Source of the DNA: a virus
Taxonomy: Duplodnaviria; Caudoviricetes
Reading direction: 5' to 3' (one strand)
Length of the DNA: 64,000 nucleotides
IMG/VR virus record: IMGVR_UViG_3300021431_000075
Coordinates: 576,001-640,000 of that record
Of this stretch, positions 2,890 to 42,371 are shown piece by piece. The translations under genes and the position numbers were made by a program. Position 1 is the first letter of the stretch. Every line of letters starts with the position of its first letter. Below the pieces are notes generated by a model. That model made no database searches and was not told the origin of the DNA. It saw nothing but the letters and a program-made list of their open reading frames with translations.

Positions 2890-5385
2890 TTATCTACAAG
2901 TTTTTATAAATTCTGAAATTATTCCAGCATATACTTTATTTGCATCTCCACTAATATCAATATGCGGATGAACGCCGTCTTGATTATAAAGTCTAAAAAC
3001 ATTACAACCTGTGTTATTGTCAATGCAGTCGTTTGCTACACTTGGTCTTCCTTGTGACGATGGATATAATTCAAGAAAGTATTCTTTTGCAGTAGGAATA
3101 ATATGATTGCTGAAACCTAAATACTTATATACTTCACATAGTGGGAAAGCCCAGCTTTTTGCTATTGATTCTTGCGCTGAAATTATTGAAGAATATGAAG
3201 GTCTATCCCCGTTTTCATATTCATAATTGCTAATAAAAACAATTCTTGCCTTTGGTTTCCAAGACAAAATAACAGTAACAATGAAATTGATAGAACCGAT
3301 GTAACAATTTCTGTTAAGACTTGCTGCAAATGATGCAATATTTGATTCGCCAACTCTTTGAATCAATTTCGCTCCGTCGCCAATCGTATTATTTAAATCA
3401 TTTCTAATATTCAAGAAATAAGCAAGTCTTTCATAGTTATTTGCAGTCATAAATGAATCTTCAGCTAAAATACTATTCGATATATTCTCAACAGTTGGCT
3501 CTAATATTATATCTGGTGTGTCGTCGGAAAGTTTATAATATGTTTTGAAATCATTATGACCGTGATCAATGACAAATAAATCTGGAATCAAACCATTTGG
3601 GTTCTTTGTTGTGACAGTTCCTTCTAAATACGGCATAAGTTTATCTTCAAAACTTGACACTCTTAGTCTTGCAATGTCATTATTATCCAACACAAAGCCG
3701 GTGTTATTGAAATTGGAATCCGTACCATTGATGATATTTTCTATTTCTTGTTTTGTCCTTGACAAACATGATGTACAGTTATCTTTATTGATACTAACAT
3801 AGTCACCAGTCCTTACGTTTGCTCTACACATAGAAGAACCGACAGATTCATTGAAAATAGTAGCATTTAAATTTATACCAACTTCTTTTGGGTAATTACC
3901 AGCGACAGTTTCTTCAGTTCCCAATGCTGAATCTTTTCCGGCAGGAATAGACGTACCACACCACCAAATCGACTTATTATTCCAGTAATTTGAATGTCCA
4001 ATATTTGATATGTTTTCTTGCAATTCTGCTATATTTTCTGTATTTGTGTCTATTAAGTCAAATTTGCTTATTTTTTGTACGAATACAATGCTTATAATTT
4101 TTACAGTACTTGCATATAGTTTGCAATCTGTATTTTGAGCAGCAAATGTATAAGTATCATTAGAACCAGAATTGCACCAATCTATGACAATGCCGGCATT
4201 TGTAGTCAATGCCATTCCATAAGAACCGGACTTAATTATGTTTAAAATGACTTTCGTGTTTGCAGGAACATCATAGATTCTATAACTCGATGATGTTAAT
4301 TCCTTTAGATTTACTTGCGAACCTTTTGTTTGAGTTCCGTAAACATAATAACCGCCAGTTTGCTGATATATATCTGTATTGTTTGTTACATCTTTTGTTA
4401 TTTCAGATGAAGCTGATTCCTTATCCAAATATTTAGCGTCACTTTCTGATTTGCTATAAAATTGTTTAGTTAACTTGATGATATTTCTACAAGAAGCACT
4501 TGTTGTTGAACCTTCAACATATATTTTAATTGTGTTTGATGGAATTTCAAATATAGTCGGTTCTTCATATGCAATTCCAAGTTCTCCAAATATAGCCGTA
4601 TCTTGATTGGATGAATCAAAACAAATCATAATAGGGCTATTGCTATTGTTAGGTTGTTTTCCTGTAATTGCAACTTTGGTAGTTCCTTGTTCTAATGCAT
4701 ATTCAAGAACAGTAAAATCTTGATTTGTGCTAATCTTGTTTGTTGTTGTTATATTCGTGCAATATTGTGGATATGATGTTGTTGGAGTTATTTCTGTTCC
4801 AATTTCTTCTTCACTTAAATCATCAATCAATGAAGTTATTTTTTCATTTACTGTAACATCAGCATCCATCAAAGTTTCAATTCTTTCTTTGATTGTCTCT
4901 GATGAATTTATTACTTCTATTTTTACTACTTTATTTAATAATGCATGTATATAACCTGTAGATGAAATTGGAGCAAATTCATGACTGCCGCCATCTGTTG
5001 AAGTTACAAATTCTTTTACAATATCAGAACTATCAGTTAATACGAATCCGTAATTGCCAGTAGTGAGATATTCCAGTTGAACTTTGCAATTTGCTGGTAT
5101 TTCATATCTCTTGACATTATATGTAGTACTTCCGGGTGGTACAATTGCGATTGTTTGACCGACTACTTGGGTTTTAGAAGGATAACCAGAATAACTTACA
5201 CTTTCAGCAAGCGGAATAGTTATATTGTCAAAATGCAACTGCTTATCAATTTCTTCAAATTCATTAGTCAATGCAGCCTGCGTAATGCCACCATCTGTAT
5301 TATTGCCAAGTTCATCATAAAGAGTTCCTTTTATCTTATATGGAATATCTTGAATGTTTATTGATGTTACGATTGGATCGCCCAT
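2890..5385 (-). CDS. Outer cassette A: fibre/spike-like protein with C-terminal SGNH-like domain
   Basis: N-terminus MGDPIVTSINIQDIPYKIKGTLYDELGNNTDGG shared with 5781 and 39404; SGNH-like blocks WCGTSI, DHGHND, DGVHP. Confidence 0.65.
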   Translation of the reverse strand: MGDPIVTSINIQDIPYKIKGTLYDELGNNTDGGITQAALTNEFEEIDKQLHFDNITIPLAESVSYSGYPSKTQVVGQTIAIVPPGSTTYNVKRYEIPANCKVQLEYLTTGNYGFVLTDSSDIVKEFVTSTDGGSHEFAPISSTGYIHALLNKVVKIEVINSSETIKERIETLMDADVTVNEKITSLIDDLSEEEIGTEITPTTSYPQYCTNITTTNKISTNQDFTVLEYALEQGTTKVAITGKQPNNSNSPIMICFDSSNQDTAIFGELGIAYEEPTIFEIPSNTIKIYVEGSTTSASCRNIIKLTKQFYSKSESDAKYLDKESASSEITKDVTNNTDIYQQTGGYYVYGTQTKGSQVNLKELTSSSYRIYDVPANTKVILNIIKSGSYGMALTTNAGIVIDWCNSGSNDTYTFAAQNTDCKLYASTVKIISIVFVQKISKFDLIDTNTENIAELQENISNIGHSNYWNNKSIWWCGTSIPAGKDSALGTEETVAGNYPKEVGINLNATIFNESVGSSMCRANVRTGDYVSINKDNCTSCLSRTKQEIENIINGTDSNFNNTGFVLDNNDIARLRVSSFEDKLMPYLEGTVTTKNPNGLIPDLFVIDHGHNDFKTYYKLSDDTPDIILEPTVENISNSILAEDSFMTANNYERLAYFLNIRNDLNNTIGDGAKLIQRVGESNIASFAASLNRNCYIGSINFIVTVILSWKPKARIVFISNYEYENGDRPSYSSIISAQESIAKSWAFPLCEVYKYLGFSNHIIPTAKEYFLELYPSSQGRPSVANDCIDNNTGCNVFRLYNQDGVHPHIDISGDANKVYAGIISEFIKTCR

Positions 5386-5405
5386 TTCTTAATACGGAAG
5401 TTATT

Positions 5406-5480
5406 TTATTGTTCAACCTGTGTTCTTTCAATAGAATTATCTTCAAAATCTGCATCCTTGATAATCAAAAGTTTTCCCAT
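5406..5480 (-). CDS. 24-aa leader micro-ORF MGKLLIIKDADFEDNSIERTQVEQ
   Basis: Manual translation; four paralogous micro-ORFs with synonymous differences, one per outer cassette. Confidence 0.7.
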   Translation of the reverse strand: MGKLLIIKDADFEDNSIERTQVEQ

Positions 5481-5504: not shown

Positions 5505-5527
5505 ATTGTTTCTAAACAGGTAAGTTT
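5505..5527 (-). repeat. Outer-family putative recombination site L1
   Basis: Perfect 23-bp inverted repeat with 5595-5617; 22-bp core AAACTTACCTGTTTAGAAACAA also at 37478-37501 and 39221-39244. Confidence 0.8.
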
Positions 5528-5594: not shown

Positions 5595-5617
5595 AAACTT
5601 ACCTGTTTAGAAACAAT
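5595..5617 (+). repeat. Outer-family putative recombination site R1
   Basis: AAACTTACCTGTTTAGAAACAAT; 67-bp spacer to L1 has no ATAAATA motif. Confidence 0.8.
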
Positions 5618-5679: not shown

Positions 5680-5760
5680 ATGGGAAAGATTGTAATCATA
5701 AAGGATGCAGATTTTGAAGAAAATTCAATTGACATTCATCAAACATCATCAGAACAATAA
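5680..5760 (+). CDS. 26-aa leader micro-ORF MGKIVIIKDADFEENSIDIHQTSSEQ
   Basis: Manual translation; paralogue of 5406, 37375 and 39308 micro-ORFs. Confidence 0.7.
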   Translation: MGKIVIIKDADFEENSIDIHQTSSEQ

Positions 5761-5780: not shown

Positions 5781-8750
5781 ATGGGCGATCCAATTGTAAC
5801 GAAGATAAGCGTTCAAGACATTCAATATAAGATAAAAGGAACTCTTTATGACGAGCGTGGTTATAATACAGACGGTGGAATGACGCAATCTGCATTAAGC
5901 AGTTTGTTTGACAATATAGATCTTACATTGTCTGACATCAGAACAAAATCTGACGGTTTATCGCTCACATCAGAAGACGGTTTCTATATCATTGATGCAT
6001 CTGGAGACATAGCACTTAAAGTTGATAGCAATGGCGTGTTCGACGTATCTGCTATTGGAACGAATCTTCAAGAAATTATCGGAAACAAAGCGATACAAAC
6101 TGTTGATTCGTCGATTATAGAAATCAATAATACGATTGACAGTCTCGGAACAACTATTGATAATGTTGAAACAACTATTGATGATGTTGAAGGTGAAATA
6201 ACAGAATTGTCTAAAAATGCTCCACGTGTCGTAGATGATTACGGCGTCTATTTTACAGATGCTAACGGAAACATCATGTGGTTCATCAAGACATATAAAT
6301 GTTTAGAAGACGGTCTTTACTTCATAGATGAGCACGGCAATGTTGGTTTGCAATATGTAGATGGTGAATGGTCTTTTAGCAATCTAACAAATGTAGATGG
6401 AAGTGGTGGAGGAAGTTCTATTGATTCATCTACAATGGACCACTCATTGATAATGAGAGCAAATCGAGCAATAAAAGAACTCAATTCTGTCAAAAATCAA
6501 ATAGATCATTCTATACCATCATTATTAACACTTACTAATGGAGAAACACAATCAACATTCTCAACAACAGTTCAGAACACATCTGCTAAGGAAAAGGCAA
6601 TCGTTAGATTGAGATTGCACTATGGAAGTTCAAAGTACACTCCAGACAATAATGATATTTTCTTCAATGGAACTTGCAAAACGGATTTTAGCGACGTTAG
6701 GTTCTTTGACAGCAACGGAAACATGTTGAAAGCCGCATTCGGAGAACCGTTCCATCTTGGTGTGTATAGAGATACGAATCTGCATGGAACTGCACACGGA
6801 AGATACACAAAAATCACATCAAATGGTTATTTAATCAAACTTACCAACCAGGGAATTGTAATAACGAAGGATAATGGACAAACATGGACACCGATTGGTC
6901 CAAATGGTAGTGGTTATAAGAATTATTCCGAGTATCCGTCAGATGTGTATGGTTTTAGAGGTATGATTCCGGTTTTTGTTGATTCTAATAATAATTTATT
7001 TGGTTATTCAGGCGGAAAATTATATAAGATTGAACACGGAGCGAATTATGATTATGCAAATGAAGTAGAGGTCTGTGACTTTTCTTGGGTTTATACAGAT
7101 CCGTCAACAGGAGATACAAATACAGTATATCCGGAAATAACGCCGGCTGGAATGACTGAAGATATAAATGGCAATCTCTATTTCGGAACATATGCGGATA
7201 CAAAGTATTATCATGTAGACATATTTGTATCTACAAATCAAGGAAATTCCGGAACATGGGTTAAGAAATATCATAAAAGTGAAACAGACCTTGATGCTAC
7301 AGGGAATCGTCAAAAAGATTTTCAACATGTTCATCATGTCCATGCAGACAAATACTCTACCAAAGTATATGTCGGTATTGATGGCGGCTTTCCGGCACAA
7401 GGTCCAACACTCATATACACTGATGATGCCGGAGAAACATGGAATGATATCACAACAAGGTTAAAAGAGCATAGAGGTCATGACCAGTATCCTGCATATT
7501 TTGGACAAACATATAAGTTAGGTGGAGGTGAATCATATACTCTTGGTGGAAATTCAATCATCAGAGGAAATGCGGATGATACTGAATTTGAAGATGTTTG
7601 GAAAGGTTGGGGCGGAGTGCGTTTCATAAGCGACTTTGGCGATGATTCTCTGCTAATTGTCGGTATCCAAAGAAATTCTCATTTTGAAGAAAACCAGATA
7701 CTCTTATCATATGACCAGGGCAAGACTTGGAAAAACTTGATGCGCGTTGATACGCCCAAAAAGGTTACAAGTGGAGATGGATTCAGAAAAGCAATATATT
7801 GTGGAACTCTTGCTGGTGATACAGCACCTTGTGTTATTCTGAATCAGGGACATTTCACAGAAGCGTTTAGAGTATACAAAGAGACGAATGATTATTATAG
7901 AGAAGTTGAAGTAGAAGTTGATGACGTTCCATCTTCCGCTTCTGAAATAACAATCACTGCGAAAACAGGTTACGTAATGCCGTATCCATATACTACTGTT
8001 CGTGGTCTTGAAGTTGACGGGCTTGTATACGAGATTCCGTTCAATGAAGGTTGCGGAACAATGGTTCAAGATTCTCTTGGAAATATTGTTTCTATTGACG
8101 GAACAATTTCTTGGGAAACAAAAGAAGAACCAGTCAGATATGGAGAATATTCAAGCGAAGAAGATAAACCATTTGCATTCTCATCCGCAGCAAAAGTCAA
8201 TGGAATTCTTGACTTTGGAAAGATTGACGAATTGAATTTCTCAAATGGATATACGATAACTTTCTGGTGGAACGAGAAGAACCGTTTGTGTCATTATACG
8301 GAAGAAGAAAGATATGACCACGGTTATTTGACGAATCCTGTAATTTTGAGAATCCTGTCAGCCGGTAACTATGACTTGGTTAGAACAAGGGAAGCGATGT
8401 TCAGCATTATTCCAAGAGGCGCGACAACAAGAAACATTACCAATGGTCATTCAGCGGGAATGCAAGCGCTTCCTTGCAGTGATAATTATTGCTTTATCTG
8501 CATTGTTGTTAGCGACACAAGAATTTATCTTTATCTCAATGGCTCGTTATCAGGTGGCAACACTGTTGGTTCTTGGGTTGGTTTTAATGATATGAATCTT
8601 TCAGAGAACAACTTGGTCATAGGTAGTGCAGATACAGAGACGCCGGGTTATATTTCAGATTTCAAAATATACAACAGACAACTTTCAGATACTGAGATTA
8701 GAGACATTTACAAAGGCTTCAATTACGAGCCGCGACCAGAAAATCCTTAA
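5781..8750 (+). CDS. Outer cassette B: fibre/spike-like protein with DUF2341-like, BNR/Asp-box propeller (sialidase-like) and LamG/ConA-like domains
   Basis: Shared MGDPIVTKI N-terminus; CKTDFSDVRFFD; Asp-boxes TKDNGQTW, TDDAGETW, SYDQGKTW; C-terminal GYISDFKIYNRQLSDTEIRDIY. Confidence 0.7.
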   Translation: MGDPIVTKISVQDIQYKIKGTLYDERGYNTDGGMTQSALSSLFDNIDLTLSDIRTKSDGLSLTSEDGFYIIDASGDIALKVDSNGVFDVSAIGTNLQEIIGNKAIQTVDSSIIEINNTIDSLGTTIDNVETTIDDVEGEITELSKNAPRVVDDYGVYFTDANGNIMWFIKTYKCLEDGLYFIDEHGNVGLQYVDGEWSFSNLTNVDGSGGGSSIDSSTMDHSLIMRANRAIKELNSVKNQIDHSIPSLLTLTNGETQSTFSTTVQNTSAKEKAIVRLRLHYGSSKYTPDNNDIFFNGTCKTDFSDVRFFDSNGNMLKAAFGEPFHLGVYRDTNLHGTAHGRYTKITSNGYLIKLTNQGIVITKDNGQTWTPIGPNGSGYKNYSEYPSDVYGFRGMIPVFVDSNNNLFGYSGGKLYKIEHGANYDYANEVEVCDFSWVYTDPSTGDTNTVYPEITPAGMTEDINGNLYFGTYADTKYYHVDIFVSTNQGNSGTWVKKYHKSETDLDATGNRQKDFQHVHHVHADKYSTKVYVGIDGGFPAQGPTLIYTDDAGETWNDITTRLKEHRGHDQYPAYFGQTYKLGGGESYTLGGNSIIRGNADDTEFEDVWKGWGGVRFISDFGDDSLLIVGIQRNSHFEENQILLSYDQGKTWKNLMRVDTPKKVTSGDGFRKAIYCGTLAGDTAPCVILNQGHFTEAFRVYKETNDYYREVEVEVDDVPSSASEITITAKTGYVMPYPYTTVRGLEVDGLVYEIPFNEGCGTMVQDSLGNIVSIDGTISWETKEEPVRYGEYSSEEDKPFAFSSAAKVNGILDFGKIDELNFSNGYTITFWWNEKNRLCHYTEEERYDHGYLTNPVILRILSAGNYDLVRTREAMFSIIPRGATTRNITNGHSAGMQALPCSDNYCFICIVVSDTRIYLYLNGSLSGGNTVGSWVGFNDMNLSENNLVIGSADTETPGYISDFKIYNRQLSDTEIRDIYKGFNYEPRPENP

Positions 8751-8796
8751 TCCGGAATTTTTTAATTCTATTAAAATAATTTGATATAATAATTAT

Positions 8797-9666
8797 ATGA
8801 GCGGAATTGCATTTATAGTTCCAAACGCAGACTTTTCAGGCAGCGTTCTTGGACAAGTAACGATTCAGAAAACTGTTGAAGAAATGGCTTCAACGGTCGT
8901 AAAAGCATACACAGATAAGATTGGAAGCACTCAGTATTCTTCTCAACTGACGAATATGGTAATGTCTCTTATGAGAGAAGGAATATGGAACGGTATTGAC
9001 GTATATCCGATGCTCGGTTCCACTTTAAATCATATGGCTATCAATATAAATCCAAACAACGGATTCCAAGGCCTTGATTTGAAATTTGGCACTAATGCTT
9101 CATATGTTACAAATGGTGTTGAGTTTGCAGAAGGCGATGATTACGGAAGTACTATAACAGATGTGACATATAAGGCATATGACGGTACTGCTGCAGAAGT
9201 TACACAATCTCTAAATGGTTTCTACATATTATCTGATTTGAGAAGATATACTTTGAATGGAAGAATCAGAACTTTTTATACTACAAGAGGTAACCAGAAC
9301 ACTCCGGTCACAATAAAAATAGGTTCAACTGGTAAGGCTATTTGGGAAATTAGCAATACGAGTTTATCATCCACAACGTTAATCGGAACAAGTAGAAATA
9401 ATGTTTCATTTTCAATTAATAACGGAACAATGATAGAATATATTGATGGTGTTCAAGATGTATCGACAGCAGTTGGTTTTGCAAGCGACTCACCAAATGT
9501 CAGGATTGGCAATTTCTTGGGAGCATCGCCAGTTAATGATACTGCAGTAACCACATTTAACGGTTCTTGCTGGTTCTGGGCCATTGGCATAATAGATCCA
9601 TCAAAGCATGCGACAGCAAATACAATATTTAAGACATTCCTTGATGCAGTAAAACCGAACATTTAA
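8797..9666 (+). CDS. Cassette B partner protein (LamG-like beta-rich), paralogue of 41391..42371
   Basis: Shared MSGIAFI..N.DFS, IW.GID.YPM and IFKTFLD..KP motifs. Confidence 0.6.
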   Translation: MSGIAFIVPNADFSGSVLGQVTIQKTVEEMASTVVKAYTDKIGSTQYSSQLTNMVMSLMREGIWNGIDVYPMLGSTLNHMAININPNNGFQGLDLKFGTNASYVTNGVEFAEGDDYGSTITDVTYKAYDGTAAEVTQSLNGFYILSDLRRYTLNGRIRTFYTTRGNQNTPVTIKIGSTGKAIWEISNTSLSSTTLIGTSRNNVSFSINNGTMIEYIDGVQDVSTAVGFASDSPNVRIGNFLGASPVNDTAVTTFNGSCWFWAIGIIDPSKHATANTIFKTFLDAVKPNI

Positions 9667-9685
9667 CCAAAATACCATCAAATAC

Positions 9686-9725
9686 AAAAATGCCAAGACT
9701 TCTTAAAAATAGTCTTGGCATTTTT
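9686..9725. terminator. Intrinsic terminator
   Basis: AAAAATGCCAAGACT-loop-AGTCTTGGCATTTTT perfect 15-bp stem. Confidence 0.8.
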
Positions 9726-9760
9726 CATCATTTCAAGCATAAAATCAATCCTGATAGTTC

Positions 9761-9963
9761 TGTAGAACATAGAGATTCATAGAATCACATATGTTTACTT
9801 TCTTTTGACGATTCATCGGTGACTTGGTACTCACAAGACCATTCATTAAGAATGCGTTTTCCTATTGGTCATCTCCACGTCCCGTCTCCCCGAACTCAGG
9901 GGCAGCCCGGACTATCGGACTCCGGGAAATCCAGAGACAACTTAATGTCTCTATGAGTTTACA
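9761..9963 (-). mobile_element. ~200-bp non-coding element resembling an IS605/IS607 TnpB 3' end / omega-RNA-like miniature element
   Basis: GC-rich island; imperfect terminal inverted similarity (TGTAGAACATAGAGA / TCTCTATGAGTTTACA); minus strand GACG-TGGAGA...GATGAAT-CGTC; hairpin CCCGGA...TCCGGG. Confidence 0.35.
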
Positions 9964-10352
9964 AAGAACAATGATATTAAATCTACATAAGTATACTACA
10001 AGATGTCAAAATAGTTTAAAATAACTTCAATGTTTTTTTTGATAGCATATTAAATAGAATTAGTTAATGATTACAATACATTAAACATCAAACGTAAATC
10101 CATCAGGATTTCTAATTTCATACAGAATAACATTGAATACTATGAAGAAAATTGCGAGATAATGGCATATTGTGCTGGCAATTTTAACAGAATAAAGAAT
10201 GTTACAAGTTCTAACATATCTTCTGTCAATACATTAAGGGTATTTAGTAAAAACTATACATTTCACCGAATGAGTTAAACAAATGCATCAAGATAGTATG
10301 CGGAACTGCAATTAAGAAGGTTGCGCTTTCTATAAGTAGAAATAGTTATGGA

Positions 10353-10694
10353 ATGATAGCACTTGATGTTTATTCAGATAGACTTATTCCAGAAGGAAAA
10401 GAGCAGTTTTATCTTCCGGCGGTTCCAACTGATATGGGTAACATAAATGTTGGAGATAGTGTATTCGTAACATCTAATAACACAGTTGTTGTTTGGAATG
10501 GTTCGAAATGGGTTGAAAACGATAGTGCCGGAGCAAGTGTTGTCCGTAGCGGTGCAACAAGCGAGAGACCATCCGGAAGTTCAATTTATGTAGGATTCCA
10601 GTTCTTTGACACTACGCTTGGAAAACCTATATATGCTAATGCAATCAGCGGAAACACTGTAACATGGGTAGATGCAACAGGAGCAAATGTCTAA
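10353..10694 (+). pseudogene. Orphan C-terminal fibre module, probable remnant of a decayed cassette
   Basis: SGATSERP...GFQFFDTTLGKPIY...WVDATG resembles the C-terminus of 17104..20085 (KGTTVQR...GLRYYDTTLKKYVLWNGTQW); no conserved N-terminus or site upstream. Confidence 0.55.
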
Positions 10695-12504: not shown

Positions 12505-12518
12505 GTTTCTTATTCAAG
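12505..12518 (-). repeat. Inner-family site S1 (one mismatch: CTTGAATAAGAAAC)
   Basis: 13/14 match to CCTGAATAAGAAAC; variant base at 12517. Confidence 0.7.
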
Positions 12519-12599
12519 CGAGTTTGCTACAGCATAGAACTACTTACAATTCTCTAATGCACAGAAACTTACACCAACTAATTGAAAGAGTAGAACTTA

Positions 12600-32156: not shown

Positions 32157-32203
32157 CGATTGCAAAATGATTATATTTAGTATTAAAATATCAAAAATCC
32201 AAC

Positions 32204-34914: not shown

Positions 34915-36021
34915 TTAATTATCAATATAAATCTCTGCAGAAGGGAAATTAGCGAATGGGATTTCTACAATATAGGAATTGTTACCTAATGATATGAGAT
35001 TCCTATTGCTTGTGATAGATTTTCCTTGCAACGGTGTTCCCGATGTAGAAAATTTCACACTAATTGGAACTTGCAAGAGTTCTGTATTTACATTCAATGT
35101 ATTTTGTGTTTCAAGACGAATTGATAATCTGTTTGTCGAGTCGTACTTTGGTGAATACATCACAGCTTTTGTTATAATACTACGATATACGAAATAAGCA
35201 AGTGCTTCACCATATCCAGCAAAATATATTTCATTGTTTGTATTCTTATTTGCAAGCATTTGAAAATACTGACGATAAATAGAGCCTTCTGCATCTATCG
35301 TGGTTACTGTTTCTCCACATGCTTGTTCATTTGCTAAGATTGTGTGCCAATGAGTGAAATTATTTAACCAACCGCCATTAAGAAGTGTTTCATCTATCTT
35401 TGCAGCAACAGTGTTAAGATATGAAATACCTATCGGATTGTCACCATTTGATGGGAATGCAGTATCATGCCATCTAAATGTACTTTCTTTGCTAATAAAT
35501 CGTGCTATTGAATAAGGCATATTATTCGGTGTTCCATAACCGACACCATAATCAGTTTCACCGCTTATTCCTGAATTCCTTCCACCAAGCCAATATCCAT
35601 CACTTTCTGCATAAGATTTGAAAGTCTGATTACCATAAGAGTAAGAAAACGCATTAGGCACTCTACCATACTGTTCAACAAACCTTGGTATATGATAATC
35701 ATCTCTATATTCATTATACATATCTTCTGATATGATACCACTGGTTGTACTTGGGTTTGCATTTGGGGTCCAGAAATAAACATCTGGCCAAAATAAGTTA
35801 TTATCTATTAGTTCATGTATTTTTTCAGTTGCTTCGTTTCCATAATTAGTATAATACATAAACGCGCCAACTTTAATGCCAAAATCTTCTGCAAGGTTCA
35901 AGACGCCAATAGAACCATTTTGAACTTGGTCGCTTTGTTCTGTATATGTCATCTTTTTGCCTAATCTATGAGCACATATTTCTACATCATAGTCTTTTCG
36001 TGGGAAAAATATTACATTCAT
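34915..36021 (-). CDS. Cassette C second gene: polysaccharide-deacetylase-like protein
   Basis: PNAFSYSYG and GGWLNNFTHWH resemble NodB-fold motifs; divergent. Confidence 0.45.
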   Translation of the reverse strand: MNVIFFPRKDYDVEICAHRLGKKMTYTEQSDQVQNGSIGVLNLAEDFGIKVGAFMYYTNYGNEATEKIHELIDNNLFWPDVYFWTPNANPSTTSGIISEDMYNEYRDDYHIPRFVEQYGRVPNAFSYSYGNQTFKSYAESDGYWLGGRNSGISGETDYGVGYGTPNNMPYSIARFISKESTFRWHDTAFPSNGDNPIGISYLNTVAAKIDETLLNGGWLNNFTHWHTILANEQACGETVTTIDAEGSIYRQYFQMLANKNTNNEIYFAGYGEALAYFVYRSIITKAVMYSPKYDSTNRLSIRLETQNTLNVNTELLQVPISVKFSTSGTPLQGKSITSNRNLISLGNNSYIVEIPFANFPSAEIYIDN

Positions 36022-36028
36022 AATAACA

Positions 36029-37354
36029 TTAAATCTTTACCTTAATTGTGTAGTTTGTGCTATCAATGTAAGCATATCCAGTTTCAATATTTGTGCCGTC
36101 GCTTACTGGTAAGTCAGCAAGTAAATTCTCGATTGTTGGCGTTTCGGATTCGCCTCCATCTTCACTACTTCCACCACTGTTGTTGGAACCTTTAATCGCA
36201 TAACCCTTTATTTTTGATATTTCTTGCATAAACGGTTCAAATGATGGTAAAGTATTACCTTCACAAATCATCAATTCATCATAAGGTGTTTCCCAATCTT
36301 GAGGAATTGTACTACTATTTGACTTTATATTAAAAAGAAGATATGCAGCATTATTCGGAGATGTGAGTGTTTTTGGAGATAAAAAACCTTTTGGATCTGA
36401 AAAAATATATGGAGAAGTGCCGCTTAATTCAATTTTTGCATCATTTGAATCACGGAAAACAAAATAACCAGCACGTCCGAGATAAAAACCACCGAATGTA
36501 TAATCTGTATTTGGTTTAATTGCAATCCTAATATAACTCCAATCAGAACCGTTTGTAATATTACCAGTATTTGAAATGTATTTTCCTTCAACAATATTAT
36601 TTGTCTTGTCTGCAAGATTCTTTCCGCTCGGTTCCAGAGTTAAATCATTATTATCTATATATTCTGTTAAATCAGAATGTTGTACATATTGCTGTAATGA
36701 TGTAGATAATAAAGGATTAACTATATCTTCAATTTGTGAATTTGGAACTTTCAGTTCATATCCTTTTATTTTATTGACATAACTATAATAAGGTTTAAAA
36801 GAAGGTAAAGTATTACCTTCACAAAGCATCAATTCATCATAAGGCGTTTGCCAATCTTGAGGAATTGTGCTACTGTCTGATTTTATATCAAAAAGAAGGT
36901 ATGCGGCATTACTTGGAGTTGTGATTGTTTTGGGAGACAAAAAACCGTTTGGGTCTTTAAAGGCATATTGAGATGTTCCGCTTAATTCAATTTTTGCATC
37001 ATTCGTGTCATGAAAAACAAAATAGCCTGTCCGTCCGAGATAAAAACCACCGAATGTATAATTTGTGTTTGGCTTGATTACAATCCTAATATAACTCCAA
37101 TCAGAACCGTTTGCAATATTACCAGTATTTGTAATGTATTTTCCTTCAATAATATTTGTCTTGTTTGCAAGATTGTCACTTGCAACGATTGACAAATCAT
37201 CATTACTTATAAACTTCTCATTTACTTCATCAATAACATCTTGAATATTGTCAGCATCTAAACCACTTGTAGATGAATCATAAGATACTAAAGAAGCAAC
37301 TGTGCTTATAGTATAATCACGTTCTTCAACATTTATCTTCGTTACATTAGCCAT
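36029..37354 (-). CDS. Outer cassette C: fibre-like protein with a tandemly duplicated ~140-aa domain
   Basis: MANVTKINVEERDYTI N-terminus; near-identical repeats at ~36749-37174 and ~36191-36619. Confidence 0.65.
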   Translation of the reverse strand: MANVTKINVEERDYTISTVASLVSYDSSTSGLDADNIQDVIDEVNEKFISNDDLSIVASDNLANKTNIIEGKYITNTGNIANGSDWSYIRIVIKPNTNYTFGGFYLGRTGYFVFHDTNDAKIELSGTSQYAFKDPNGFLSPKTITTPSNAAYLLFDIKSDSSTIPQDWQTPYDELMLCEGNTLPSFKPYYSYVNKIKGYELKVPNSQIEDIVNPLLSTSLQQYVQHSDLTEYIDNNDLTLEPSGKNLADKTNNIVEGKYISNTGNITNGSDWSYIRIAIKPNTDYTFGGFYLGRAGYFVFRDSNDAKIELSGTSPYIFSDPKGFLSPKTLTSPNNAAYLLFNIKSNSSTIPQDWETPYDELMICEGNTLPSFEPFMQEISKIKGYAIKGSNNSGGSSEDGGESETPTIENLLADLPVSDGTNIETGYAYIDSTNYTIKVKI

Positions 37355-37374: not shown

Positions 37375-37452
37375 TTATTGTTCTTCTATTGATACTGTTT
37401 CAACTGAGTTTTCTTCAAAATCAGCATCCTTGATGATTAAAAGTTTTCCCAT
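37375..37452 (-). CDS. 25-aa leader micro-ORF MGKLLIIKDADFEENSVETVSIEEQ
   Basis: Manual translation; paralogue of the other three. Confidence 0.7.
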   Translation of the reverse strand: MGKLLIIKDADFEENSVETVSIEEQ

Positions 37453-37477: not shown

Positions 37478-37501
37478 TTGTTTCTAAACAGGTAAGTTTC
37501 G
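37478..37501 (-). repeat. Outer-family site L2
   Basis: Perfect 24-bp inverted repeat with 39221-39244 flanking the recombinase gene. Confidence 0.85.
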
Positions 37502-37534
37502 CTTTTTTATGATTGTAAAATTTACAGTCATAAC

Positions 37535-37568
37535 AAAAGAGAGAGCGAACATCAATCCGCTCTCTCTT
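37535..37568 (-). terminator. Recombinase terminator insulating cassette C
   Basis: AAGAGAGAGCG...CGCTCTCTCTT stem between recombinase stop and L2. Confidence 0.7.
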
Positions 37569-37594
37569 GTATACATTAAAAATAAAATAATCAA

Positions 37595-38587
37595 TCAATC
37601 ATTCCAGCATACGTACTTTCCAAACGCGCTTTCCGATTTATGTCCAGATGCGCGTCTCACTTCTTCGTTGTGCAACCCACGTTTGATTGCATTTGTAATC
37701 ATCGTTCTTCTTGCCGTATGTGAACTGATAAGCTCATAGAACTTGTATGTCACTTTCTTCAGTTCCCCGTTCTGCTTATACTCGTATACGATCTCATCAT
37801 CAAAACCGGCAAGTTTGAACAGTAAGTGAAGATACTTGTTATAGTTCTCTGTGCCTCCCTTGTATGGATTCGTATAGTTATACTTCATAAGAAGTCCCTC
37901 TATTATTTTTGGATATGGAGCTATCCTTTTCAAATCTATGACTGCTTTGTTTCCTGTTTTCTTCTGAATAATCGTAAGAACGTTGTTATTGAACATCGTC
38001 TTGTCGATTCTTTCGATGTCAGATATTCTCTGTCCAAGCGCGCATGAAATGACAAACTGGTCCCTGACTTTCGTAAGAGTCTGCTTGAGCTGTGGTCTCA
38101 CGTCAAGAGTGCTTATGTCAAAATATGTTATTCTGGATACTTCATCTTGCGTCAAAGCAATCTTTGGTCTCTTGTCGCTACCCGGCATGTAACAGTCTTC
38201 CAGTGTTGGAGACACTTTCGCCCCGTACTTGGCAGACCATTTCAGAACTGCCGAAATCTTGCAGCAGATGTTGTTGATTGTGCTTGTTGCAAGGTTCTTC
38301 TGAAGAAGGTAAGTATGAAATTGCTGCCAGAACACATCTCCGATTACAATCGGGTAAAGAACGATTTCATTCTCGTTCTGGATATTCATCAAGTGCATCT
38401 TCACTTGAGAGTATCTCCGTTCAGCTGCTTTCGTTGATGCTTTTGAGCGAATCTTCACATACTGGTCAATACATTCAAGAACCGTTGCATTCTTGAGATT
38501 GATAAAATGGTTAAATTTGTCCGTGTCTGCAAAGATTTTAAAATTTGGACACTTCTTTTCCGGTTCTTCCGATTTTATATCTGCCAT
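37595..38587 (-). CDS. Tyrosine recombinase (Bacteroidota-type integrase family), putative invertase
   Basis: Catalytic signature GQRISD (R), QKKTG (K), SHTARR (HxxR), SGH, and Y in FGKYV. Confidence 0.92.
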   Translation of the reverse strand: MADIKSEEPEKKCPNFKIFADTDKFNHFINLKNATVLECIDQYVKIRSKASTKAAERRYSQVKMHLMNIQNENEIVLYPIVIGDVFWQQFHTYLLQKNLATSTINNICCKISAVLKWSAKYGAKVSPTLEDCYMPGSDKRPKIALTQDEVSRITYFDISTLDVRPQLKQTLTKVRDQFVISCALGQRISDIERIDKTMFNNNVLTIIQKKTGNKAVIDLKRIAPYPKIIEGLLMKYNYTNPYKGGTENYNKYLHLLFKLAGFDDEIVYEYKQNGELKKVTYKFYELISSHTARRTMITNAIKRGLHNEEVRRASGHKSESAFGKYVCWND

Positions 38588-38627
38588 GACGACTTTATTT
38601 AATTGTAATTATTGTTGTTTGTGTCTG

Positions 38628-38635
38628 CAAAATTA
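38628..38635 (-). promoter_or_regulatory. Bacteroidota-type -7 box TAATTTTG upstream of recombinase
   Basis: Matches TAnnTTTG followed by CA, as at 29383 and 58221. Confidence 0.55.
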
Positions 38636-38768
38636 TAATTTTAATCTCAAAGAAGAAATTATACGGAACATATTTGAGAAAAATTTAACTTTAATTAAGC
38701 CAATTTGTAGTTTTGTCTATTCAAAATGAAGAAATCTCTCATTTTTAAGCGTTCAAAATAAAAGCAAA

Positions 38769-38776
38769 GATAAATA
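38769..38776 (+). promoter_or_regulatory. Distal late-promoter-like GATAAATA in the outer switch
   Basis: Context GCAAAGATAAATA identical to 26031-26043 (minus strand). Confidence 0.5.
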
Positions 38777-39132
38777 AAATCAGAAGGATTGATACTATCG
38801 AGCATGATGCGAGTGGCTTTGTAAAATGCATTAGATTGCAGACGCAAGGTTTCATTCTAACGAGTTTGAAAAGACATTCCGTCAAGAAACCTCCGGTTTT
38901 TCTATTAGGCTGGAAAGTTTCGCCGGGAATCATCACCGGACTTTACAGAGGATTTTCCGCACATCGCATATGTCTGTAGATAATGTACGTGCTAATATCT
39001 ATAATAGATTTGTTTTTGATGAGACTCTTCGCAAGTCTGCATGAAATGACAATTTTCTCATAAAACGACAATGGTTCTATTTAGTGTTTCTTCACGACAG
39101 TCAGCAAATAAAAACAATGCTAAAAACGTTAA

Positions 39133-39140
39133 GATAAATA
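39133..39140 (+). promoter_or_regulatory. Proximal late-promoter-like GATAAATA in the outer switch
   Basis: Context AAGATAAATAnTAAAAT shared with the 25890 motif; ~80 nt from site R2. Confidence 0.6.
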
Positions 39141-39220
39141 CTAAAATAATGATTATTCGAACTGATGCTGTGATGAACATTTCAGAGAAGAATATCCGTT
39201 TCGATAACAAGTTTGAAAAA

Positions 39221-39244
39221 CGAAACTTACCTGTTTAGAAACAA
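39221..39244 (+). repeat. Outer-family site R2
   Basis: CGAAACTTACCTGTTTAGAAACAA. Confidence 0.85.
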
Positions 39245-39307: not shown

Positions 39308-39382
39308 ATGGGAAAGATTGTTATTATCAAGGATGCAGATTTTGAAGAAAATTCAATAGAAAGAACATCATCAAATCAATAA
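39308..39382 (+). CDS. 24-aa leader micro-ORF MGKIVIIKDADFEENSIERTSSNQ
   Basis: Manual translation; paralogue of the other three. Confidence 0.7.
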   Translation: MGKIVIIKDADFEENSIERTSSNQ

Positions 39383-39403: not shown

Positions 39404-41362
39404 ATGGGTAATCCAATTGTAACGAAGATAACTGTTGAAGATATTCCATATAAAATAAAAGGAACTTTATATGACGAACTTGGCAACAATACTGATGGTG
39501 GTGTAACACAAGCAGCATTGACAGGCTTGTTCAATAATGTTGATTTGTCACTGTTCGATTTTAACAACAAAACAGAGAACTTCAAACTCACATCGACTGA
39601 TGGTTTCTACATCATTGATTCAACAGGAAACATTTGTTTAACAGTAAACGGAAATGGCGTTTTTGATGTATTAGACATCGGAGTGAACATCAGAAGCAAA
39701 ATCGGTTCAATTACTTCTGAAAGTATCAATACTGCAATCACAACAGTCAACGAAGCAATAGACAGCATTGATAATGACGTAAGCAAAGTAAATAGCAAGT
39801 TATCAAACTATGAGATTACAAGCGAAGATGGCTTCAGAATAGTCGACCCTGACGGAAACATATGTTTCATTGTAAGCAGAAACGGAATGCTGGATGCTCT
39901 TGGTTTGGGAAACAACTTGACAGAAATCATCAATAATATAATTTCATCTGGTTCTTTGTCTGTAACTACTCATGAAATTCCGCTTGATATTGAATATGGT
40001 GGCTTGACATTTGACGGTTCTATGACAGGTTCTGATGCAAGAACTGCATTCTTCAACTTAAAGAGAACAAAGAACTTCATCAAGAGAAATACATTTGAAC
40101 TCACATTGACGAATTGTACTGCTCAAGTCTATATGTATGATAGCAGTTTTAATTTTATAAGAATCGTTGATTATGCAACATATATAGAGAATCCGAGCAA
40201 CTATTCATTCTATGCATACAAACTTTTGTTCACGATTACAGATACGACAAATGAAATGAATGTCGTATATGAAGCGAATGATTGCCAGTATATCAAGAAC
40301 AAATATACATCATTAACGGAAATTTCTTTCGTTTATGAAGTTCAAATAAACATTGGCAAAGATGTTCTCGATGATGACCCGACAATCGAAAGAATAATTG
40401 AGGATAAGTATTACAATACAGGTTTTATAAAACTGCCACCAAACTATTCACAGACTGGAAGTCCAACACCTTTGATTCTTTTTGCTCATGGTAGTGGTGA
40501 TTATGGAAGTATAGGTGCAAGTGTAATGACTACGAACTATGCTGCATATTATGAATATCTTCAAAAAGAAGGTTATGCTATATTTGACTGTTATGGTTCA
40601 TCGAATTATTATGCATCAAAATACAACCTTGCATATTCTGTATCTCTCGGAACACCAACAAATATGAGTTGTATCAATGCTGCATACAAATGGGTATGTG
40701 AACATTATAATGTTGATACATCAGGAATATATGTAACTGGAAAATCATTAGGCGGCATTATTTGCTTTGCTATGTTATATCAAAATTCTATTCCGGTCAG
40801 ATGTGTCGGTGCTCTTGCGCCATCTATAGATGCACGTTTTCTTTCTGAATATGTTTTTGGTTATAATGATAAAACGCAGAATTTCTGTTTTGAAGATTTG
40901 GGATTTGATGTGAATGACGGAGACACGAATGAAACGATTTTGCTGAATAATGTTGACAAGTGTGCTAATTTTATTAACTCATTGAGAAATATAACTTACG
41001 CAGAAATCGATAATACTCAAATAACATCTCAAAAGGAAATAGTAAGACAACTTATAAACGTTTCGCCCGGAAATGCAAAATACTCAAAACTGGAAAGAAT
41101 TTGCAATGTTCCTATTAAGATATTCATCGCAAATGATGACAAGATAGTAAGTCTTACTGGCTGCAAATATTTCATCAATTCTATCAAAGCAACAGGCGGT
41201 GATGCAGAAATACGCTTATTTCCTTCAAATACTGGAGGGCATCATGCGGTAGATACTGACACAAACGCGTTAAAAGTCAATGTTACTACAAAACTCGGCT
41301 ATGATTGTTCAGACGTGCCATTGGCATACGCAGAACTCGTGCAGTATTTTAGAAAATATTGA
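39404..41362 (+). CDS. Outer cassette D: fibre-like protein with alpha/beta hydrolase (esterase-like) domain (predicted ON)
   Basis: MGNPIVTKI N-terminus; LILFAHGSG, nucleophile elbow GKSLGG, ANDDKIV, GGHH. Confidence 0.75.
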   Translation: MGNPIVTKITVEDIPYKIKGTLYDELGNNTDGGVTQAALTGLFNNVDLSLFDFNNKTENFKLTSTDGFYIIDSTGNICLTVNGNGVFDVLDIGVNIRSKIGSITSESINTAITTVNEAIDSIDNDVSKVNSKLSNYEITSEDGFRIVDPDGNICFIVSRNGMLDALGLGNNLTEIINNIISSGSLSVTTHEIPLDIEYGGLTFDGSMTGSDARTAFFNLKRTKNFIKRNTFELTLTNCTAQVYMYDSSFNFIRIVDYATYIENPSNYSFYAYKLLFTITDTTNEMNVVYEANDCQYIKNKYTSLTEISFVYEVQINIGKDVLDDDPTIERIIEDKYYNTGFIKLPPNYSQTGSPTPLILFAHGSGDYGSIGASVMTTNYAAYYEYLQKEGYAIFDCYGSSNYYASKYNLAYSVSLGTPTNMSCINAAYKWVCEHYNVDTSGIYVTGKSLGGIICFAMLYQNSIPVRCVGALAPSIDARFLSEYVFGYNDKTQNFCFEDLGFDVNDGDTNETILLNNVDKCANFINSLRNITYAEIDNTQITSQKEIVRQLINVSPGNAKYSKLERICNVPIKIFIANDDKIVSLTGCKYFINSIKATGGDAEIRLFPSNTGGHHAVDTDTNALKVNVTTKLGYDCSDVPLAYAELVQYFRKY

Positions 41363-41390
41363 TTTCAATTATTAAAACAAAACAAAGATT

Positions 41391-42371
41391 ATGAGCGGCA
41401 TAGCATTTATATTGGAAAACTCGGATTTTTCAAGCGAAAATATCGGCACAATAGAACTCGGTTCAGCGATTGAAAACATCGTTGATAGATACATATCATC
41501 TGCCGGAGGCAGTGCTTCAACATACAGGGCTGCTTTATTAAGGATGGTAACATCTCTAAAGCAAGAAAATATCTGGGATGGAATCGACATTTATCCTATG
41601 GTCGGCAACAATTTGACAATAAATCTCAATCCAACAGATGGTAAAGTAAAGGCAAATCTTGTTTATGATACAGACCATGCTACGATGGGAAACAATATGT
41701 TTACATTTGACGGTAACGGTCCGGGTGCAAGTTCAAACATAACTAACATGTCTGGCGAATATATAATATTGCCAACTGATTCAACAAGAGCAAATTTATA
41801 TGTCTGTGCTGATGTTGAACTTAACGAAAATGCACAAACTCCCGGAATACCAAAGAATAGTAGATTCATTTATGGTCAACGTAATACAGGCAATATTAAA
41901 TTTTTCACAGCAAGTTGCTCAACATGGGGTGATGGTTCATCGTCTCCTATAGTATTATTGTTGGATGCTTCTGGCGGAACTGGAAAAAATAGAGCAGCAT
42001 ATGACCCATCACAAGACAGATTAGTAAGAAGATTATACAGTTTCTCTATAATTGATATTGATGAAACGATTGACGAAACGAATTATACATCTGAAACTAT
42101 TCTTCGTGTTAATGGAGCTAAGGTAACACCAGACAATTCACTTGGTGGATTTAAGACTACAGCCAAAAACGGAAGTTATAAGCTAAGTCAAAATAATGGA
42201 ATTGGATTTATGGAGTCACAGGCAGGTGCAACTGGAATAGATGGATATTATACATTGGACGGAAACGTCCGATTCTTTGCCAGAGGTATCTTAAGTCAAG
42301 AAAATGCTCTTAAAGCAGACAATATCTTCAAGACATTCCTTGATAGCACAAAGCCATATACAAATTCATAA
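41391..42371 (+). CDS. Cassette D partner protein, paralogue of 8797..9666
   Basis: Shared N- and C-terminal motifs with a divergent middle. Confidence 0.6.
   Translation: MSGIAFILENSDFSSENIGTIELGSAIENIVDRYISSAGGSASTYRAALLRMVTSLKQENIWDGIDIYPMVGNNLTINLNPTDGKVKANLVYDTDHATMGNNMFTFDGNGPGASSNITNMSGEYIILPTDSTRANLYVCADVELNENAQTPGIPKNSRFIYGQRNTGNIKFFTASCSTWGDGSSSPIVLLLDASGGTGKNRAAYDPSQDRLVRRLYSFSIIDIDETIDETNYTSETILRVNGAKVTPDNSLGGFKTTAKNGSYKLSQNNGIGFMESQAGATGIDGYYTLDGNVRFFARGILSQENALKADNIFKTFLDSTKPYTNS

Follow-up and report, generated by a model that had tools for sequence, protein, structure and literature searches.

The window analysed here, a stretch of 64,000 nucleotides, belongs to a complete phage genome of 673,114 bp from a sheep rumen population (runs SRR873597 and SRR873598 plus sister runs). 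It covers most of a locus in which 14 cassettes, whole genes each with their own N-terminus, lie behind short sites located upstream of the start codons: eight inner cassettes behind the core CTGAATAAGAAAC and six outer cassettes behind TACCTGTTTAGAAACAA. A first-pass annotation had placed 12 sites in the window and all 12 are found where it put them; the in-window counts of both site families were reached by none of 100 shuffles.

Sites in the window (coordinates, strand, feature):
5506-5522, minus: A1 site, outer family, exact TACCTGTTTAGAAACAA
5523-5599: A1/A2 short spacer, 77 nt, without a GATAAATA-like motif
5600-5616, plus: A2 site, outer family
12505-12520, minus: B1 site, inner family, variant CGCTTGAATAAGAAAC
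12598-12613, plus: B2 site, inner family
16953-16968, minus: B3 site, inner family
17046-17061, plus: B4 site, inner family
25774-25789, minus: B5 site, inner family
26173-26188, plus: B6 site, inner family
32204-32219, minus: B7 site, inner family
32297-32312, plus: B8 site, inner family
37478-37494, minus: A3 site, outer family, left end of the outer long segment
39228-39244, plus: A4 site, outer family, right (promoter) end of the outer long segment

Behind every site lies a gene that reads in the site's direction, and the 12 in-window sites strictly alternate in orientation, as the annotation had described. Its total of 12 cassettes rises to 14: the eight inner ones stand, while the outer ones number six instead of four. 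A third outer site pair lies outside the window (genome 566142, minus, and 566237, plus, corresponding to window −9858 and −9763 and to positions 10142 and 10239 of contig L001) and brings two cassettes, A-1 and A0, about 10 kb before the window start (967 aa and 689 + 176 aa). The outer family also brackets about 13 kb of core genes with 45 % GC, from L001 13070 to window 2815. All inner sites fall between the outer sites at 5600 and 37478, the nested geometry originally proposed. Divergent cassette pairs are separated by a short promoterless spacer or, once per family, by a long segment; the short spacers all lack the late-type motif, as claimed, and amount to five copies, not four.

The outer and inner sites have common flanks (AAACTTACCTG ... 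AAAC) around different centres (TTTAG versus AATAAG, respectively), that of the inner sites being a different sequence and one base longer. The sites are part of the 5′ leader, with 31-165 nt from site to ATG across the 14 cassettes and conservation of the leader for 30-70 nt after the site. The distance of 30-70 nt first given for site to start does not hold for the outer cassettes, which start about 120-165 nt behind the site because an upstream ORF of 24-31 codons intervenes in six out of six.

Cassettes and other genes (coordinates, strand, feature):
2890-5385, minus: cassette A1, 831 aa, without family match
5680-5760, plus: upstream ORF MGKIVIIKDADFEENSI... between site and cassette A2
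5406-5480 minus, 37399-37452 minus, 39308-39382 plus, and two in L001: copies of this ORF before the other outer cassettes
5781-9666, plus: cassette A2, 989 aa, BNR and Laminin_G_3, with a 289-aa accessory gene
10706-12457, minus: cassette B1, 583 aa, GDSL/SGNH hydrolase
12661-14700, plus: cassette B2, 679 aa, GDSL/SGNH hydrolase
14769-16905, minus: cassette B3, 446 aa, DUF4886, with a 258-aa accessory gene
17104-20085, plus: cassette B4, 993 aa, beta-helix
20217-20915, plus: tail-tube-like gene, 203 aa, with its own GATAAATA; inside the invertible DNA, not a cassette
21093-25742, minus: cassette B5, 1549 aa
26230-28342, plus: cassette B6, 512 aa, CBM_5_12 and weak GDSL, with a 183-aa accessory gene
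29541-32159, minus: cassette B7, 872 aa, Peptidase_M14
32356-34836, plus: cassette B8, 826 aa, without family match
34915-37354, minus: cassette A3, 441 aa, internal 300-nt duplication, with a 368-aa gene
39404-42371, plus: cassette A4, 652 aa, weak alpha/beta-hydrolase matches, with a 326-aa accessory gene

An N-terminal anchor of about 45 aa is common to the 14 cassettes and absent elsewhere in the 673-kb genome; it comes in two closely related sequences, one per cassette protein. B4 is related to the crAss001 tail fibre gp22 (6e-10), A0 matches a PHROG tail fibre family (2.7e-39), and SGNH, beta-helix, BNR, CBM and M14 domains are found in other cassettes.

The long segments and the recombinase

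Features of the two long segments (coordinates, strand, feature):
25790-26172: inner long invertible segment, 383 nt, no gene
25890-25897 and 26031-26038, minus: GATAAATA pair facing out through the B5 site
37495-39227: outer long invertible segment, with terminator, recombinase gene, −7 box and two GATAAATA
37537-37568, minus: terminator
37595-38587, minus: tyrosine recombinase, 330 aa
38628-38635, minus: host-type −7 box TAATTTTG
38769-38776 and 39133-39140, plus: GATAAATA pair facing out through the A4 site

The tyrosine recombinase that had been noticed in the locus is the sole match of its kind in a genome-wide search. It scores 27.7 bits against Phage_int_SAM_5 (PF13102, cut-off 22.3) and 24.6 bits against Phage_integrase (PF00589), just below the cut-off of 27.1, and matches a PHROG integrase at 5e-15. 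The expected R, K, H-x-x-R, H/W and Y set is present, with R187, K210, H290, R293, H316 and Y325 invariant among 15 homologues.

Recombinase homologues with 84 % and 57 % identity lie within simple invertons having the same TTACCTGTTTAGAAACA site and divergent cassettes. These relatives (L015 and L061) represent a two-site form and carry the outer-type site only, while the locus described here has six and eight sites. Searches of IMG/VR with the exact sites found nothing and with the recombinase alone found no relatives. A profile of the 15 homologues recovered 18 IMG/VR loci at 36-42 % identity, none with flanking inverted repeats; we set them aside as probable integrases, uninformative on the shufflon. 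P0032 (41 % identity) was likewise set aside for its bacterial mobile-element context. Scanning metagenomes for the 17-nt outer site gave 82 single matches, mostly from unrelated environments and probably due to chance, among which only the rumen contigs L084 and L139 pair the site with a leader or anchor. Phage records searched with 20 kb of flanking DNA gave no match.

No separate recombinase accompanies the inner sites. It is conceivable, though unlikely, that the tyrosine recombinase serves the outer family only and that the inner family is inverted by a serine recombinase of the genome or by a host enzyme. Such a division of labour would fit the position of the recombinase in an outer-family segment, the restriction of its relatives to the outer-type site, the differing and longer inner centre and the presence of five or six resolvase-type serine recombinase genes in the genome. 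However, none of these genes falls within the shufflon locus: the closest is about 37 kb beyond its end, and the remaining ones are at a distance of 250 kb or more. The flanks found in both families are as expected of shared binding arms with different crossover regions. There is also a precedent in HvsR, a tyrosine recombinase acting on two distinct site types (PMC2268961). We infer that one recombinase catalyses inversion at both site families and that the differing centres keep the two families from cross-recombining.

Promoter motifs and cassette expression

The promoter motif GATAAATA was derived genome-wide, where 75 of its 90 copies are intergenic and mostly about 26-50 nt ahead of start codons. 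The genes that it precedes include those for tail sheath, terminase, prohead protease and the tube-like protein; it is also found before non-structural genes (a transposase, an HNH endonuclease), so the label 'late' is not exclusive. The observation that late-promoter motifs occupy one segment per family is borne out, each long segment having two co-oriented copies of GATAAATA. Exact intergenic copies in the 54-kb locus are confined to these four (25897 and 26038, minus; 38769 and 39133, plus) and the one of the tail-tube-like gene (20217, plus), and none was found in the five short spacers and 14 leaders even when one mismatch was allowed. In this assembly the promoter-facing cassettes are B5 for the inner and A4 for the outer family. 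The distance from promoter to first ATG is about 150-180 nt in the locus compared to the usual 26-50 nt. The best terminator in the 24-43 kb region lies just inside the A3-side site.

In several inner leaders the ATG is preceded at 9 nt by TCATTTTG, which nearly matches the host −7 box. On its plus strand the inner long segment has TATCTTTG, a TAnnTTTG match that faces B6 and is the reverse of CAAAGATA in the late motif. A scan for sigma-70-type promoters showed no enrichment (94 found compared to 88 expected) and was set aside because the motifs of this genome are of other types. Rfam returned nothing credible on the outer long segment.

One explanation for these observations is that shuffling is real but expression is not exclusive: each cassette would have its own unrecognised promoter in the leader or spacer, virions would carry many fibres as in multi-depolymerase phages, and inversion would modulate levels or be a by-product. 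The conserved leaders and the −7 near-matches are in line with this idea and a 673-kb phage could plausibly hold many fibres. Nevertheless we consider it quite improbable. The near-match is not conserved in B3, B4, B5, B6 and B8, and the genome-wide motif is missing from precisely the spacers and leaders where such promoters should lie. Moreover, 14 proteins with two related anchors unique in the genome would compete for docking places, and a terminator at the non-promoter end of the outer segment would be purposeless if both neighbours had promoters. From the promoter and terminator motifs we favour instead that only the promoter-proximal cassette of each family would be made, which allows for as many as 6 x 8 = 48 virion types; the 4 x 8 = 32 states first computed did not include the two further outer cassettes.

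Alternative arrangements in independent assemblies

Independent assemblies of the same sheep-rumen population contain alternative junctions that break inside the sites. DNA inversion at the sites re-pairs cassettes with promoter segments: contigs of other assemblies join the same cassettes to different inter-site segments, which bears out the inversions that the annotation had deduced. The outer long segment lies between A3 and A4 here and between A-1 and A0 in L004, L003, L173 and a contig of GCA_001684375.1; in L004 and L173 cassette A-1 is what its promoter end (39228-39244) connects to. L033 has, between A3 and A4, the A-1/A0 spacer in inverted orientation, identified by its GGG variant; this is the exact product predicted by two nested inversions. 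Two Logan contigs, L005 and L006, terminate no more than a few bases from 37478-37494 and 39228-39244.

In the window and in L008, a Logan contig beginning 13 nt before the B4 site (window 17033), the inner long segment separates B5 from B6; in L013 and L041 it separates B1 from B2, and the B1 site is joined to it. The gap between B5 and B6 has three different fillers across assemblies, and over 10-13 kb the flanks of the inner junctions show 99.9-100 % identity. Two inversions alone do not lead from the window state to the inner variant state; extra flips of the long segment and of the spacer are needed. That CGC-type and ACTTACC-type inner sites are bound to their leaders, which would speak against a crossover in the core, was dropped as an idea since these types are re-paired in L009 and L011.

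The inverted repeats formed by leader and N-terminal coding sequence are 150-300 nt long and similar (296 nt at 90 %, 157 nt at 97 %), and general homologous recombination between them could in principle produce inversions that are not site-specific. We regard this as very improbable. The sequence common to B5 and its partners is limited to about 25-35 nt, with the crossover within TGAATAAGAAAC, and yet B5 is joined to all three fillers. All junctions fall in the same 12-nt core, with leader and spacer variants keeping their own sides, and relatives with different cassettes have kept a recombinase and the same site.

That the alternative junctions are assembly chimeras or fixed strain differences is hardly credible, even though all the evidence derives from assembled short reads of DNA rich in repeats. 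The variant junctions are found again across differing pipelines (JGI 3300002641, ERZ12302814 with NODE-named contigs, ERZ28612978 and the GenBank assembly), and the repeat at B5 is probably not long enough to mislead an assembler. The outer spacer retains its diagnostic variant after the swap, the flanks are 100 % identical, and both arrangements come from one BioSample, SAMN02144230.

Proposed mechanism and known systems

Taken together, the best reading of the locus, and in our view a probable one, is a phage-borne, two-channel promoter-addition shufflon through which the phage probably changes the receptor-binding proteins that it makes. The 14 cassettes would be complete virion genes for receptor-binding or receptor-degrading proteins, attached by their common anchor. 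Each long segment would fire outwards through one site from its two late-type promoters. The recombinase gene would be read the opposite way from its host-type TAnnTTTG box and closed by the strong terminator, so that only one end of the outer segment would be transcriptionally open. Any inversion between two sites of the same family in opposite orientation would re-deal the promoter-adjacent cassette, and the inner family would travel wholly within DNA inverted by the outer family. The purpose may be to track variable surface polysaccharides of a Bacteroidota host.

We lean, by a narrow measure, towards a joint reading in which one phage recombinase and two orthogonal site families, different in their central bases only, provide an independent choice of one in six and one in eight receptor-binding enzymes for two places on the virion. 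The resulting 48 virion types would be a viral counterpart and counter-measure to phase-variable Bacteroidota capsules, apparently grown from the two-cassette inverton that persists in related rumen phages.

The closest likeness is to Mycoplasma agalactiae vpma (Xer1), M. bovis vsp (Mbr) and M. pulmonis vsa (HvsR), and the comparison to vsa and vpma made at the outset was apt. These loci have several complete genes, a conserved 5′ untranslated region with the recombination site followed by a conserved N-terminal coding part, one promoter, and a locus-borne tyrosine recombinase whose inversions bring the promoter to silent genes. Their products, however, are bacterial surface lipoproteins that serve immune evasion, and each locus has about six genes and a single site family, whereas the phage locus is viral, encodes receptor-binding enzymes of the virion and has two nested families, each with a promoter segment, one of which carries the recombinase with it. 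The phage recombinase gave no Xer-like matches and shows no close relationship to the recombinases of these loci. Campylobacter fetus sap, also cited at the outset, is a weaker likeness, its system using homologous recombination.

Among phages, Gin, Cin and Min are serine invertases that swap the C-terminal part of a fibre behind a fixed promoter and constant N-terminal part. In the phage locus a tyrosine recombinase would move the promoter, the units are whole genes, the sites lie in the 5′ leader, and no serine invertase is adjacent to the segment, unlike systems of the Gin, Cin and Hin type. The R64 shufflon (Rci) and the Rin shufflon of Bifidobacterium prophages, the latter acting on phage receptor-binding genes, resemble it in their tyrosine recombinase, multiple inverted sites and many isomers; they differ in exchanging C-terminal coding segments, with no promoter moving and a single site family, and no C-terminal swap of one gene is seen here. 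The likeness to the inversions of the Mu G segment (Gin), the P1 C segment (Cin) and p15B (Min) is that of a phage-encoded inversion affecting tail-fibre specificity, and these are described as altering tail-fibre specificity and host range (van de Putte 1980 in PMC12823448; PMC9881135). With six and eight sites the locus also departs from a simple inverton, in which a promoter is flanked by just one pair of inverted sites.

Bacteroidales invertible promoters and the multiple-inversion SusC/SusD locus of B. fragilis employ Tsr-type tyrosine invertases with Phage_int_SAM_5 architecture. These systems belong to the probable host phylum and likewise have a repeat-flanked promoter flipped or moved among surface-protein genes. 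They are chromosomal and regulate bacterial surface structures, while the phage locus would regulate the proteins reading such structures, from a promoter type (GATAAATA) that is the phage's own.

A literature search found no description of a phage promoter shufflon, which is weak evidence of novelty as most subscription journals were outside its coverage. Known programmed host-range switches of phages are C-terminal fibre swaps by serine invertases, diversity-generating retroelements and repeat-tract slippage. If our reading is true, a promoter dealt among 14 complete enzyme genes is a different and far more capacious design, one that would go some way towards explaining the persistence of a very large lytic phage on hosts that themselves vary their surface polysaccharides by DNA inversion. 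It would also be a natural case of two non-interacting site families served possibly by one recombinase, of interest for multi-state DNA switches. The sheep rumen data (SRR873597, SRR873598 and sister runs) contain both arrangements, so that switching frequencies are directly measurable.

Two families of sites and the layout of the locus

The first-pass annotation proposed two nested promoter shufflons serving 12 whole-gene fibre/spike cassettes. We found all 12 sites, in numbers that shuffles of the window come nowhere near. Eight inner sites have CTGAATAAGAAAC in common and the outer sites TACCTGTTTAGAAACAA:

12505 (-) and 12598 (+): inner sites
16953 (-) and 17046 (+): inner sites
25774 (-) and 26173 (+): inner sites, flanking the inner long segment
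32204 (-) and 32297 (+): inner sites
5506 (-) and 5600 (+): outer sites
37478 (-) and 39228 (+): outer sites, flanking the outer long segment
genome 566142 (-) and 566237 (+): third pair of perfect outer sites, before the window

The third pair, revealed by a whole-genome site scan, indicates that the window edge cuts the locus, and it brings two more cassettes (967 aa and 689+176 aa). The 12 cassettes claimed are thus those of the window, and the full set is 14, six outer (A-1, A0 and A1 to A4) and eight inner (B1 to B8). Similarly, the four short spacers stand for the window and become five with the one before it. The cassettes strictly alternate in orientation; behind each site, in the direction of that site, come a conserved leader and then a large gene. 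The nesting holds as described, since the outer sites at 5600 and 37478 enclose every inner site. About 13 kb of ordinary genes of 45 % GC likewise fall between outer sites, and a tube-like gene is carried within the inner family; these passenger genes have their own promoters.

G+C in the cassette region is about 0.33 (0.28-0.37 across 2000-42000) compared to about 0.45 (0.40-0.46) in the rest of the window, which fits cassettes acquired elsewhere or a different selective regime. Three other features lie in or next to the locus:

9751-9907: dispersed repeat of about 155 nt, between the accessory gene of A2 and B1
28410-29354 (-): 314-aa gene between B6 and B7, inside the inner invertible DNA
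42429-46850 (-): 1473-aa protein directly beyond the locus

The dispersed repeat has copies of 93-95 % identity at genome positions ~117443-117601 and ~200983-201134 and at window-relative 67562-67627, and is possibly a miniature mobile element. The 314-aa gene has no Pfam or PHROG match, and a bidirectional terminator (28364-28395) forms its border. The 1473-aa protein consists mostly of tandem repeats of 213 nt and shorter, with motifs such as MNLEKPEQEL and NEDVKHLDL; it may be an internal virion protein or one of tape-measure type.

DNA shuffling at the sites

Other public assemblies, found through exact protein matches, contain contigs with 99.9-100 % identical flanks and differing junctions at the sites, as inversion predicts. 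The outer long segment (37495-39227) is located between A3 and A4 in this genome. The JGI contig L004 instead has it in the A-1/A0 gap, so oriented that the promoter end adjoins A-1 and the recombinase end adjoins A0. Of these two junctions, the one joining the recombinase end to A0 is also present in ERZ28612978 scaffold_1616 (L003) and a GCA_001684375.1 contig, and the one joining the promoter end to A-1 in ERZ12302814 (L173). In ERZ28612978 scaffold_346 (L033) the A3-A4 gap is filled by an inverted short spacer with the variant GGG, which marks the A-1/A0 spacer in this genome. This set of outer junctions is the exact product of two nested inversions, A0 x A3 followed by A-1 x A4.

The inner family behaves in the same manner. 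The 383-nt inner long segment separates B5 from B6 in this genome and in the Logan contig L008, and B1 from B2 in scaffold_1616 (L013) and a JGI contig (L041). Three fillers of the B5/B6 gap were found: the long segment, a B3/B4-type spacer in one orientation (L009, L010) and a B1/B2-type spacer in the other (L011).

Homologous recombination could also generate such rearrangements, and chimeric assembly could mimic them. Both explanations are disfavoured because B5 and its junction partners have only about 25-35 nt in common and because the crossover is confined to TGAATAAGAAAC: the spacer-side variants CGCT, CGCC and TTACC move together with their spacer, and the leader remains attached to its gene, each keeping to its own side. 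This pattern in the sequences argues for site-specific rather than homologous recombination. Furthermore, both arrangements occur among the runs of a single BioSample, an argument that switching takes place within a population. Two Logan contigs that contain the outer long segment and nothing else have their ends at its two sites, to within a few bases. Among the contigs examined, no junction joined sites of different families. Taken together, the junctions show that DNA is shuffled at the sites. The layout originally observed is confirmed and is extended to 14 cassettes.

Promoters and recombinase

To define promoters we derived motifs from the genome itself, taking words over-represented on the sense strand ahead of genes. 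Two groups were obtained, TAnnTTTG(CA) and GATAAATA, the latter with a longer subclass GATAAATATCTTATAATA, also written (G/A)ATAAATATCTTATAATA. GATAAATA, which resembles the T4 late promoter TATAAATA, has 90 copies; 75 are in the 10.5 % of the genome outside gene calls, and for 54 a start codon is no more than 120 nt away, mostly 26-50 nt downstream. The genes downstream include the tail sheath, large terminase, prohead protease and tube-like gene as well as a transposase and an HNH endonuclease, suggesting that GATAAATA is the phage's own promoter type for structural genes, perhaps not exclusively. A separate gene set has the Bacteroidota TAnnTTTG box. The 54 kb holding the 14 cassettes contain five exact intergenic copies of GATAAATA, listed here with further examples of the type and with a terminator of the outer long segment:

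20217-20224 (+): before the tube-like gene
25890-25897 (-) and 26031-26038 (-): inner long segment, facing B5
38769-38776 (+) and 39133-39140 (+): outer long segment, facing A4
1277-1284 (-), 1312-1319 (+) and 50358-50365 (-): further examples
37537-37568: terminator after the recombinase gene, with a 14-bp stem

The short spacers and leaders have no GATAAATA copy, even at one mismatch, so the claim that, among the inter-site segments, promoter motifs are confined to the long ones is borne out by a genome-derived motif. The recombinase gene is transcribed away from the GATAAATA promoters of the outer segment and has a TAATTTTG box about 40 nt before its start. The terminator, the strongest in 19 kb, is just inside the A3-side site. 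This terminator and the placement of GATAAATA suggest that only one end of each long segment is open. B5 and A4 are the cassettes behind promoters in this assembly, and B1 and A-1 those in the variant contigs. At the motif level this promoter logic is well supported. The assignment of enzyme to sites, the exclusive expression of promoter-proximal cassettes and the biological purpose of the shuffling are inferred; six outer and eight inner cassettes would allow 48 combined states.

The locus contains one tyrosine recombinase, as originally noted, and this 330-aa protein of the outer long segment is the sole one detectable genome-wide. Residues R187, K210, H290, R293, H316 and Y325 are invariant in an alignment of the phage protein with 14 homologues of 43-84 % identity. 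Serine recombinase genes number five or six, none inside the shufflon locus. Inner and outer sites have AAACTTACCTG and AAAC in common and differ in their centres, TTTAG and AATAAG. In other tyrosine recombinases, overlap regions prevent exchange between unlike sites. We hypothesize that one recombinase binds both site families and that the centres block cross-family exchange; precedent exists in a mycoplasma enzyme that uses two types of site (PMC2268961).

[quoted passage not shown] The phage locus agrees in every structural feature that could be checked: whole genes, leader sites, a tyrosine recombinase gene and, at motif level, one promoter segment per family. Assignment to a Gin/Cin-type segment or an R64-type shufflon was rejected, since no C-terminal gene parts are swapped and the enzyme is a tyrosine recombinase, unlike the serine invertase of the former. 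The literature searched, with incomplete coverage, yielded no promoter shufflon in a phage and only Mu-type inversions, retroelements and polyG tracts as phage phase variation; the system is probably novel.

Simpler invertons occur in related loci. Recombinase homologues at L015 (84 % identity) and L061 (57 %) each lie inside a 1.9-2.8-kb segment between inverted copies of the same site, TTACCTGTTTAGAAACA with one base variable; the two genes on either side diverge and match each other in their N-termini. The gene layout is repeated at a 55 % homologue, there with a GDSL enzyme, and two other rumen contigs have the site together with the same leader or anchor. From these loci, the usual form in this lineage of phages appears to be a simple two-cassette inverton carrying the recombinase. 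In this genome, the inverton would have been expanded to six sites and a second, eight-site family added. At L015 an IS605-type OrfB/TnpB gene (8693-9946) is inserted in the invertible promoter segment, adjoining the recombinase.

Cassette proteins, genome and host

All 14 cassette genes, and no other gene of the genome, encode an N-terminal stretch of about 45 residues, MSTNVTKMRVKGVVYNL...LYD..G.NTDG..TQ in the inner type and MGDPIVTKI.VQDI.YKIKG.LYD..G.NTDGG.TQ in the outer type, with B5, A3 and A-1 forming a variant subgroup. The proteins match diverse domains:

B1, B2: GDSL/SGNH hydrolases
B3: DUF4886
B4: beta-helix, matching crAss001 tail fibre gp22 (7qoj, 6e-10)
B6: CBM_5_12, and weakly GDSL/SGNH
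B7: M14 carboxypeptidase
A-1: phage fibre repeats
A0: PHROG tail-fibre family (2.7e-39)
A2: BNR plus Laminin_G_3
A4: weak alpha/beta-hydrolase matches

By these matches, the domains are of kinds known from tail fibres and spikes whose targets, surface polysaccharides, they bind or degrade. Within A3 a 300-nt stretch is directly duplicated at 86 % identity (36234-36533 and 36792-37091), so that one domain is present twice. A small accessory gene (8797, 14769-15545, 27791 and 41391) with an N-terminus resembling MG..I.I..ADF comes after several of the cassettes. A similar start is found in the 24-31-codon ORF (MGK..II KDADFE.NSI...) that precedes all six outer cassettes and could be an accessory-gene relic or a translational leader:

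5680-5760 (+), 5406-5480 (-), 37399-37452 (-) and 39308-39382 (+): upstream ORFs in the window
~10023-10079 (-) and ~10279-10353 (+): upstream ORFs in L001, the stretch before the window

The source record is a single contig of 673,114 bp with direct terminal repeats, rated 100 % complete, of which the window spans positions 576001-640000; long open frames in the standard code cover 89.5 % of the genome. PHROG matches to tail sheath (5.9e-87), large terminase (4e-49), prohead protease (9e-29) and a tube-like tail protein identify a tailed phage with a contractile tail. Shine-Dalgarno-like sequences precede 12 of 604 genes genome-wide. Start codons are preceded, at 31-50 nt, by an excess of the Bacteroidota -7 box TAnnTTTG (36 versus 6 for the reverse complement). 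This enrichment, the Phage_int_SAM_5 architecture of the recombinase and the match of B4 to the tail fibre of the Bacteroides phage crAss001 point to a Bacteroidota host. The sample names of identical contigs (SHIW14-1, SAMN02144230, SRR873597, SRR873598) suggest a sheep-rumen metagenome. Resolvase (serine recombinase) genes, five clear and one weak, each of about 200-215 aa, are scattered at genome positions 76640-77020, 86043-86435, 119357-119767, 198780-199196, 308136-308522 and 655541-655840, and may be part of mobile elements or other inversion systems.
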